A DNA stretch of 64,000 nt from Escherichia coli (lineage in GTDB: Bacteria > Pseudomonadota > Gammaproteobacteria > Enterobacterales > Enterobacteriaceae). Made by a program: the position numbers and the translations under genes. The stretch lies in NCBI RefSeq assembly GCF_003334335.1, contig NZ_QOWQ01000025.1; one strand, written 5' to 3'. This document shows, piece after piece, positions 48,060 through 48,216 of this stretch (positions within the stretch are counted from its first letter, which is position 1; each line of letters begins with the position of its first letter). The notes beneath the pieces are model-generated. The model was not told where the DNA came from. It searched no databases and worked only from the letters and a program-made list of their open reading frames with translations.

Positions 48060-48216
48060 TGCATAAGCCCTATCCCTGGTCACCGTCTTCCATTGACCAC
48101 ATCGATAGAATCTCCCTTCATAGCACGATGCCTTTCACGTAACGGCATCGTGCTCGCACAGGTTCCGGCTAAGCACAACCAGAACGCGCATGTTTGACGC
48201 TTACCAAAAAATATTC

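Follow-up and report, generated by a model that had tools for sequence, protein, structure and literature searches.

Elements that integrate at tRNA and tmRNA genes bring with them a new 3' end for the gene and displace the old one. A decayed copy then marks the far boundary of the insertion, and later elements use the functional copy. CIMEs are flanked by att sites, lack a recombinase of their own and are accreted in tandem beside ICEs that use the same att site. In attB, arm sites are not needed. For phage P2, a decayed relative is found at the small RNA gene cyaR of Escherichia coli K-12, where ogrK and a truncated D gene (yegZ) form a young and strain-limited remnant that has kept an intact arm with IHF and Int sites, ogr and a part of D.

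The window described here, that is the whole stretch of DNA that was analysed, comprises 64,000 nt of Escherichia coli (GCF_003334335.1, contig NZ_QOWQ01000025.1) and contains an islet of about 800 nt behind the same gene. This islet is an older, smaller and nearly universal example of the known kinds of remnant, situated at an sRNA gene and with arm sites recognisable at both ends. It shares with the K-12 remnant the site, the orientation (ogr-side arm next to cyaR) and the nature of a decayed P2-type sequence bounded by att sites. Unlike that remnant, its stub of ogr-side arm is present in almost all E. coli, consists of about 45 nt of arm without any phage gene and, in K-12, lies beyond the remnant. 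As with displaced 3' fragments and tandem decayed islands at tRNA and tmRNA genes, a displaced core marks the far end of the old insertion; the differences are that the target is the gene of an Hfq-dependent sRNA, that a residue of about 800 nt is left and that the arm-type sites of the recombinase can still be recognised. The islet also resembles CIMEs in being att-flanked, without a recombinase and in tandem with a complete element in the window, but no evidence for excision was found, and a CIME-like mobilisation is unlikely because the outer core is decayed, with 9 mismatches from the consensus, and the arms are truncated. In full-text literature searches (the P2 att-site papers of 1992 and 1993 lay outside their scope), no statement was found on a resemblance between the bacterial arm and the phage arm or on yegR lying in an att-bounded islet.

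The present prophage and the repeat beyond its int end

The gene for the CyaR/RyeE sRNA, cyaR, lies on the plus strand at 14289–14374 and matched Rfam family RF00112 with 100.7 bits against a gathering score of 47. The 3' half of its terminator is the att core, which is identical to the attP core annotated in the P2 record AF063097. Two copies of this core, identical over 28 nt, were located by sequence comparison and a repeat search, one at the cyaR-side junction of the present prophage (14351–14378) and one at the int-side junction (48032–48059). They enclose a P2-type (Peduovirus) prophage of about 33.65 kb at 14379–48031, the left end of which is 97.4% identical to P2. The left end carries ogr on the minus strand (14479–14697; Ogr scored above the cut-off of NF007241), and the right end carries int on the plus strand (46939–47952; Int matched tyrosine-recombinase models). 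The preliminary description had the place of the left junction right but called it attL, which in the P2 convention is attR; in the GenBank record of P2, the ogr-side arm is called the 'P arm'.

The recombination sites of the prophage arms could be located by transfer of the P2 annotation. On the ogr-side ('P') arm, an IHF site was placed at 14376–14409 from positions 24324–24357 of AF063097, with identical sequences; in the P2 record, the region from the core to the ogr-side Int site is annotated as IHF site. It is followed at 14413–14440 by the Int arm-type site ggtcacgtccacacattgaccacatcga, annotated in P2 as 'protein_bind Int, P arm' (24293–24320), and the left-hand motif of the preliminary description is this same site. 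Its minus strand contains the direct repeats TGTGGTCA and TGTGGACG, both of which match the arm-repeat consensus tgTGGaCa for P2-type integrases (PMC3448106). The int-side arm has its Int arm-type site at 47918–47944, also transferred from P2, where two TGTGGACA repeats start at 47925 and 47936 and together span 47925–47943.

Sequence of the ogr-side arm was found a second time on the far side of the prophage, outside the int-side junction. The 8-mer ctggtcac is present at 14411–14418 and at 48076–48083, the 15-mer cattgaccacatcga at 14426–14440 and at 48091–48105, and the two motifs are 7 nt apart in both copies. A repeat search of the window paired 14406–14454 with 48071–48119 (49 nt, 71% identity) and, around the core, 14351–14385 with 48032–48066 (91% identity). 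The offsets of the repeats, 33665 and 33681 nt, show that an indel of 16 nt separates core and motif. With up to 2 mismatches permitted, the 15-mer occurs at only 2 sites in the 64 kb, where 0.12 matches were expected by chance. A global alignment of 48061–48105 to 14380–14440, from which the core was left out, gave 37 identities, and none of 20,000 shuffles scored as high. The flank is thus genuinely similar to the left end of the prophage, to a degree far above chance and in register with the core.

The preliminary description had reported the motifs in the right flank and in the left end at these same coordinates, and had seen in them a vestige of an earlier P2-type integration. Both points held. 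The pairwise alignment of the left-end arm to the right flank showed that the similarity is not confined to the arms expected from attP x attB; the flank contains additional sequence derived from a phage arm, beyond what this simple recombination places there.

The islet between cyaR and yegS

The fossil ogr-side arm, or stub, extends over 48060–48105 and was delimited by alignments to the P2 arm, again with 0 of 20,000 shuffles reaching the score. Its outer part, 48078–48105, aligns to P2 24293–24320 with 21 of 28 positions identical, including the 15-mer, and in register with the core. Nearer to the core, 16 nt are missing relative to P2, and the gap together with the surrounding divergence coincides with the annotated P2 IHF site, which is gone. 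With the ogr-side arm of P2 attP (AF063097), the stub shares one complete repeat, TGTGGTCA at 48094–48101 on the minus strand, with its flanking bases and in the same orientation to the core. In contrast to that arm, its second repeat is decayed (GGAAGACG or GAAGACGG where P2 has TGTGGACG), the IHF site is deleted, and the Int site lies 16 nt nearer to the core and in a bacterial arm. Judged by the two tgTGGaCa repeats of a P2-type Int arm site, the stub falls short with one intact repeat, and an IHF site between core and repeats at P2 spacing is absent from it in the alignment to P2, though partly kept in strains of the E21 type and in a divergent Escherichia lineage (L013). With one of two repeats present and the IHF site missing, the stub would not qualify as a functional arm site.

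Intermediate forms of the stub were found in other genomes. A minority form in 145 genomes (e.g. E21 and 19KM1776) is 12 nt longer and restores GGATTGAT opposite the GGATTTAT of P2; it has 42 identities to the phage arm in 62 columns, which was not equalled in 20,000 shuffles. L013 has an orthologous flank, of which 278 nt were compared, and an arm with almost the full P2 spacing. Relative to P2, the arm is shorter by 1 nt in L013, by 4 nt in the E21 type and by 16 nt in the common E. coli form, and these graded lengths form a decay series. A longer islet of the L013 type had no match among the complete E. coli genomes. Between six diverse E. coli sequences, the ctggtcac part varied in three and cattgaccacatcga was invariant, a sample too small for a test of constraint.

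Today, the stub is most likely inert, as suggested by the missing IHF site, the loss of one Int repeat and the variability of the ctggtcac part. It clearly does not prevent integration. P2 avoids the site in K-12, in which the intact core is joined to a full arm; if this holds, a complete arm may interfere with integration in a way that the decayed stub does not. There is a slim chance that the surviving repeat, now 16 nt nearer to the core, recruits P2 Int and so helps to make the cyaR site the strongly preferred one, or that it gives the int-side prophage junction the likeness of a crippled attP and thereby changes the efficiency of excision. If the repeat were not inert, the classical P2 attB would be a composite site that had been shaped by an earlier phage.

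The islet as a whole occupies 48060–48863, about 800 nt, and its order is P-arm stub, hairpin, yegR, AT-rich DNA, a stretch of 29 nt resembling the int-side arm and a decayed second islet core (20/29). The preliminary description had limited the vestige to the interval between the prophage and yegR; it appears to be larger, to include yegR and to reach a decayed second junction at 48806–48863 beside yegS. Behind the stub, in the yegR 3' region, stands an inverted repeat with a stem of 11 bp (agcacgatgcc...ggcatcgtgct, 48111–48146). It belongs to two adjacent strong hairpins at 48111–48185, and the minus strand of 48095–48216 folds with −42.6 kcal/mol (z = −3.1). As a terminator of yegR, the hairpin at 48111–48146 was considered and set aside; neither of the two hairpins has a T-run, a terminator scan was without result, and they are not a canonical intrinsic terminator. 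Neither ogr nor D sequence was found in 48060–48216, and no recognisable element gene was found inside the islet, yegR being its sole gene and without an NCBIfam match.

The minus-strand gene yegR (48217–48534; RefSeq annotation, translation and homologues) codes for a predicted lipoprotein of 105 aa with a signal peptide ending in ...IMSGC and belongs to family PF27694. Close homologues were found almost only in E. coli and Shigella, and the gene was absent beside cyaR from every non-E. coli locus that was examined. One of the distant homologues (47–81% identity) was in an IS-rich island of Enterobacter and the others were in ordinary non-phage neighbourhoods of the chromosome. DNA homology to these other loci is confined to the open reading frame. 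The homologues of yegR, similar over the reading frame alone, thus offer no link to P2. A tblastn search for yegR in phages gave only two records, both with host flank, and no genuine phage. A blastn search of the stub and its flank against phage genomes extended beyond the core only in ON470606 and AY639599, and no genuine phage arm nearer to the stub was found. The first of these (ON470606.1, vB_EcoM-720R8, a 'partial genome') is a prophage prediction that runs through yegR and yegS into gatR. The second (AY639599.1, 'Phage TP') is a K-12-like chromosomal segment with the order yegQ-cyaR-ogr-D'-stub-yegR, the 'putative protease' of which is yegQ. The gene yegR may have come to the site as cargo of the ancient element, or it may be a later arrival.

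Upstream of yegR follows an AT-rich spacer (48535–48805) with a GC content of 0.31–0.41 in the composition profile. No homology of this spacer was found elsewhere, the likeness to other yegR loci being limited to the reading frame. The islet then closes with the fossil of the other arm and the third core copy. The stretch at 48806–48834 corresponds to the core-proximal part of the int-side arm; compared with 48001–48031 of the prophage, 21 of 31 columns are identical (68%), a score that 1 of 20,000 shuffles reached. It showed no similarity to the body of cyaR upstream of the core (6085 of 20,000 shuffles). At 48835–48863, MAFFT and shuffling identified a third, decayed att core, AATCCTCCATACTTGAACTGACTTTTTAT, which represents the 3' end that cyaR originally had and that has been displaced; it is identical to the core at 20 of 29 positions, and again 1 of 20,000 shuffles reached this score. 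MAFFT places the cyaR 3' end of the outgroups on this same stretch, and homology to them resumes immediately afterwards in the ancestral cyaR-yegS spacer (48864–48948), which ends before the yegS start at 48949 and is collinear with the three loci L081, L057 and L060, where the spacer directly follows cyaR.

A tandem duplication of cyaR was considered as a source of the distal core and rejected, as the 29 nt in front of it resemble the int-side arm of the phage instead. Since this stretch is like the int arm and not like cyaR, the distal junction is of the phage type. Deeper in the islet, the next 60 nt (48746–48805) were searched for the int-side TGTGGACA repeats, and the result was not significant by shuffling. 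Altogether, the features of an att-bounded remnant were found: an insertion at the core relative to L057, L060 and L081, core repeats at both ends, and arm sequence just inside each junction.

The cyaR site in E. coli and in other species

Of the 5426 complete E. coli genomes in which the stub was followed, 5418 had the 600 nt that lie to the right of the junction, and a probe made of cyaR, core and stub was contiguous in 4218, which represents an unoccupied site with the stub directly after cyaR. Strain TH9F11 is an example of such an empty site with 100% identity. About 22% of the complete genomes did not have cyaR, core and stub contiguously, and the examples that were seen included P2-like prophages and the K-12 remnant at this position. 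In K-12, the order is cyaR, core, full arm, ogrK, truncated D, partial core and then the same stub.

The presence of the stub in nearly all genomes, the empty sites and the layout in K-12 show that it is simply the bacterial arm that normally belongs to the primary attachment site of P2, and that it predates the K-12 remnant. The suggestion of the preliminary description that the present prophage had integrated beside, or replaced most of, an older element in this strain does not agree with a stub present in 5418 of 5426 genomes and standing free of any prophage behind cyaR in 4218; the present prophage replaced nothing at the cyaR site. Likewise, the stub had been connected to the ogrK/yegZ remnant of K-12, but K-12 possesses that remnant plus the same stub beyond the partial core.

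Other species were covered by one genome per GTDB species, which were scanned for an exact 23-nt pattern of the cyaR body; 96 loci were recovered, and E. fergusonii was not among them. In E. whittamii (L057), Escherichia sp. E1V33 (L060) and strain E69 (L081), cyaR is followed by about 95 nt and then by yegS, with no stub and no yegR. Compared with these sister species, E. coli has 803–815 nt inserted precisely where the core ends. In most other Enterobacteriaceae loci in which yegS was found, its start lies about 75–140 nt after the 3' end of cyaR.

The arm motif itself was seen beside cyaR in Citrobacter and related species (L012, L019, L020, L033, L070 and L097), and in three of these loci (L012, L019 and L097) ogr and D genes confirmed a P2-like prophage. 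The prophages at these loci show that the motif belongs to the phages. Many P2-like phages with different cores have the same arm, their matches beginning at query position 52.

Small islets after cyaR with a second partial core were found in Enterobacter sichuanensis (L045), in Pluralibacter (L014) and in L021. Insertions of 200–900 nt between cyaR and yegS were noted in these three and in L017, L038, L050 and L067, several of them bounded by a second partial core, and in L021 the motif TGACCATCTCGAT is arm-like. The cyaR 3' end thus looks like a hotspot at which integration has recurred and scars have accumulated. In E. albertii NBRC 107761 (L008), the stretch about 55–400 nt beyond the cyaR pattern holds a P2-type arm that breaks off behind its first Int repeat (…TTTCTGATCGCGTCCAC), followed by an apparent fragment of an IS-type transposase, as judged from the raw sequence, and then by very AT-rich DNA. 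By its sequence, this arm represents an independent decayed remnant at the cyaR site. A further observation concerns the end of cyaR itself. The 3' half of the terminator is TTACACGGGCTT in E. coli, identical to the P2 core, and TTACGCAGGCTT in E. whittamii, Escherichia sp. E1V33 and E. albertii; this difference would fit a phage having supplied the present 3' end of E. coli cyaR.

Origin of the islet and its surroundings

Taken together, 48060–48105 is probably a fossil P2-type ogr-side arm, and the islet of about 800 nt that it closes off on the cyaR side would be the residue of an integration by Int that took place long ago at the cyaR 3' end. The ancestral layout would have been cyaR, a spacer of about 95 nt and yegS. 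An element bearing att arms of the P2 type would then have recombined, in an ancestor of E. coli, with the core in the cyaR terminator, giving the order cyaR-core-[ogr-side arm ... int-side arm]-core-yegS; with this, cyaR would have received a new 3' end and the old one would have been displaced towards yegS. Later on, nearly the whole element would have been lost, and its remains would be two arm fragments, of about 45 nt on the ogr side and about 30 nt on the int side, with about 700 nt of interior and yegR between them. As part of the sRNA terminator, the core that ends cyaR would have been preserved, and the displaced copy beside yegS could decay to 20/29. The intact core would then have remained the primary attB for present-day P2-like phages. 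Under this model, the int end of the present prophage abuts the old arm stub, and this accounts for the resemblance noticed in the preliminary description. The homology, the spread of the stub through the genomes, the insertion compared with sister species and the repeats at both flanks are observations; the integration itself, the sequence of decay and the inertness of the stub are inferred.

Several points weigh against this explanation. No recognisable phage gene is left in the islet, yegR is in no genuine phage record and has its homologues in non-phage contexts, and the homology to the int-side arm is short (about 30 nt, 68%), with the expected TGTGGACA repeats undetected further in. The outgroups, moreover, are represented by one genome per GTDB species found through an exact 23-nt pattern, and the fullest arm, that of L013, was read over 278 nt. 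Among the competing views, the one with the best prospects, unlikely as it is, is a still viable form of the main model. In it, a small element of satellite type or without an integrase would have carried yegR between P2-type arms and been mobilised by the Int of a helper, so that little of it would have been lost. Such an element would explain why both arm fragments and both cores survive and yet no phage gene does, and why the interior holds no more than one small gene and the AT-rich region upstream of it; att-bounded islets of similar size also follow cyaR in other genera (L045 and L014). The int-side Int repeats and the IHF site are missing, however, which makes the arms non-functional as they stand, the homologues of yegR elsewhere are not flanked by arms and share only the reading frame, and no intact example of such an element was found.

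The fossil arm could also be turned around, with the arm of P2-like phages derived from E. coli DNA beside cyaR. Homology alone has no direction, and imprecise excision is a known route by which phages gain DNA adjacent to att; but this is very improbable for a motif that is an Int arm-type repeat, occurs on the other arm as well (twice as TGTGGACA, 47925–47943), and is found in P2-like phages with different cores and in P2-like prophages of Citrobacter and related species. Sister Escherichia species are without a host copy, and the host copy in E. coli is truncated and decayed, with a decayed junction of the other arm about 750 nt away. A recent event in this strain, with the prophage integrating beside an older P2-like prophage or recombining most of it away, has even less to recommend it. 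The flank does carry phage-arm sequence, and K-12 proves that P2 remnants can occupy this site, but the identical stub stands directly after cyaR and free of prophage in 4218 of 5426 genomes (in TH9F11 with 100% identity), and K-12 carries it in addition to its remnant. From the empty sites and from K-12 it follows that the stub predates the diversification of E. coli, and a replacement at the level of the strain is excluded. A chance or low-complexity similarity near the T-rich terminator might be thought of for short regions that adjoin a shared core, and its probability is negligible; an identical 15-mer and 8-mer at equal spacing, the 0 of 20,000 shuffles with the core excluded, and the restriction of the 15-mer to two sites in 64 kb exclude it statistically, and intermediate variants bridge the gap between stub and phage arm.

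The fossil arm corrects the reading of the junction: what lies outside the prophage is the arm that the bacterium normally has at the P2 primary site, and this arm is itself phage-derived. P2-type integrations have been stacked at one sRNA gene, with three generations in K-12 and two in this window. For programs that call prophage boundaries, the stub is a concrete case of arm-like sequence that is not to be counted in the current prophage, and E. coli attB fragments cloned for work on P2 recombination include an Int arm-like site when they reach at least about 50 nt past the core. The location of yegR suggests that this gene, which is mostly restricted to E. coli and Shigella, arrived in or with an att-bounded insertion. 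The stub is an evolutionary fossil; it points to no new mechanism and is not a feature of this particular strain.

Other features of the window were noted along the way. Among the cargo of the prophage is a Pycsar system against phages, encoded by two genes on the minus strand (27762–29664), with a PycC cyclase of 462 aa (PADLOC PDLC00764, E = 1e-128) and, in an overlapping gene, a PycTM effector of 179 aa with two transmembrane segments (E = 9e-28). A second cargo pair is located on the minus strand at 39193–41863, between the capsid/terminase and the replication genes. One gene codes for an AAA ATPase of 555 aa with a nuclease-like C-terminus, which had its best PADLOC matches to NsnB (2e-51), HEC-03B and AriA and weak NCBIfam matches to MADS3 and the retron Eco8 effector; its partner of 333 aa had no family match. 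By these similarities, the pair is probably a defence system of the ATPase-nuclease type. At 24231–24720, at least three tandem copies of a 132-nt unit (81–87% identity) lie within an open reading frame of 764 aa on the minus strand (22944–25238), which is probably a tail-fibre gene. A Sib antitoxin sRNA, which is unrelated to the stub, was found at 43–170 (Rfam RF00113, 73.9 bits).
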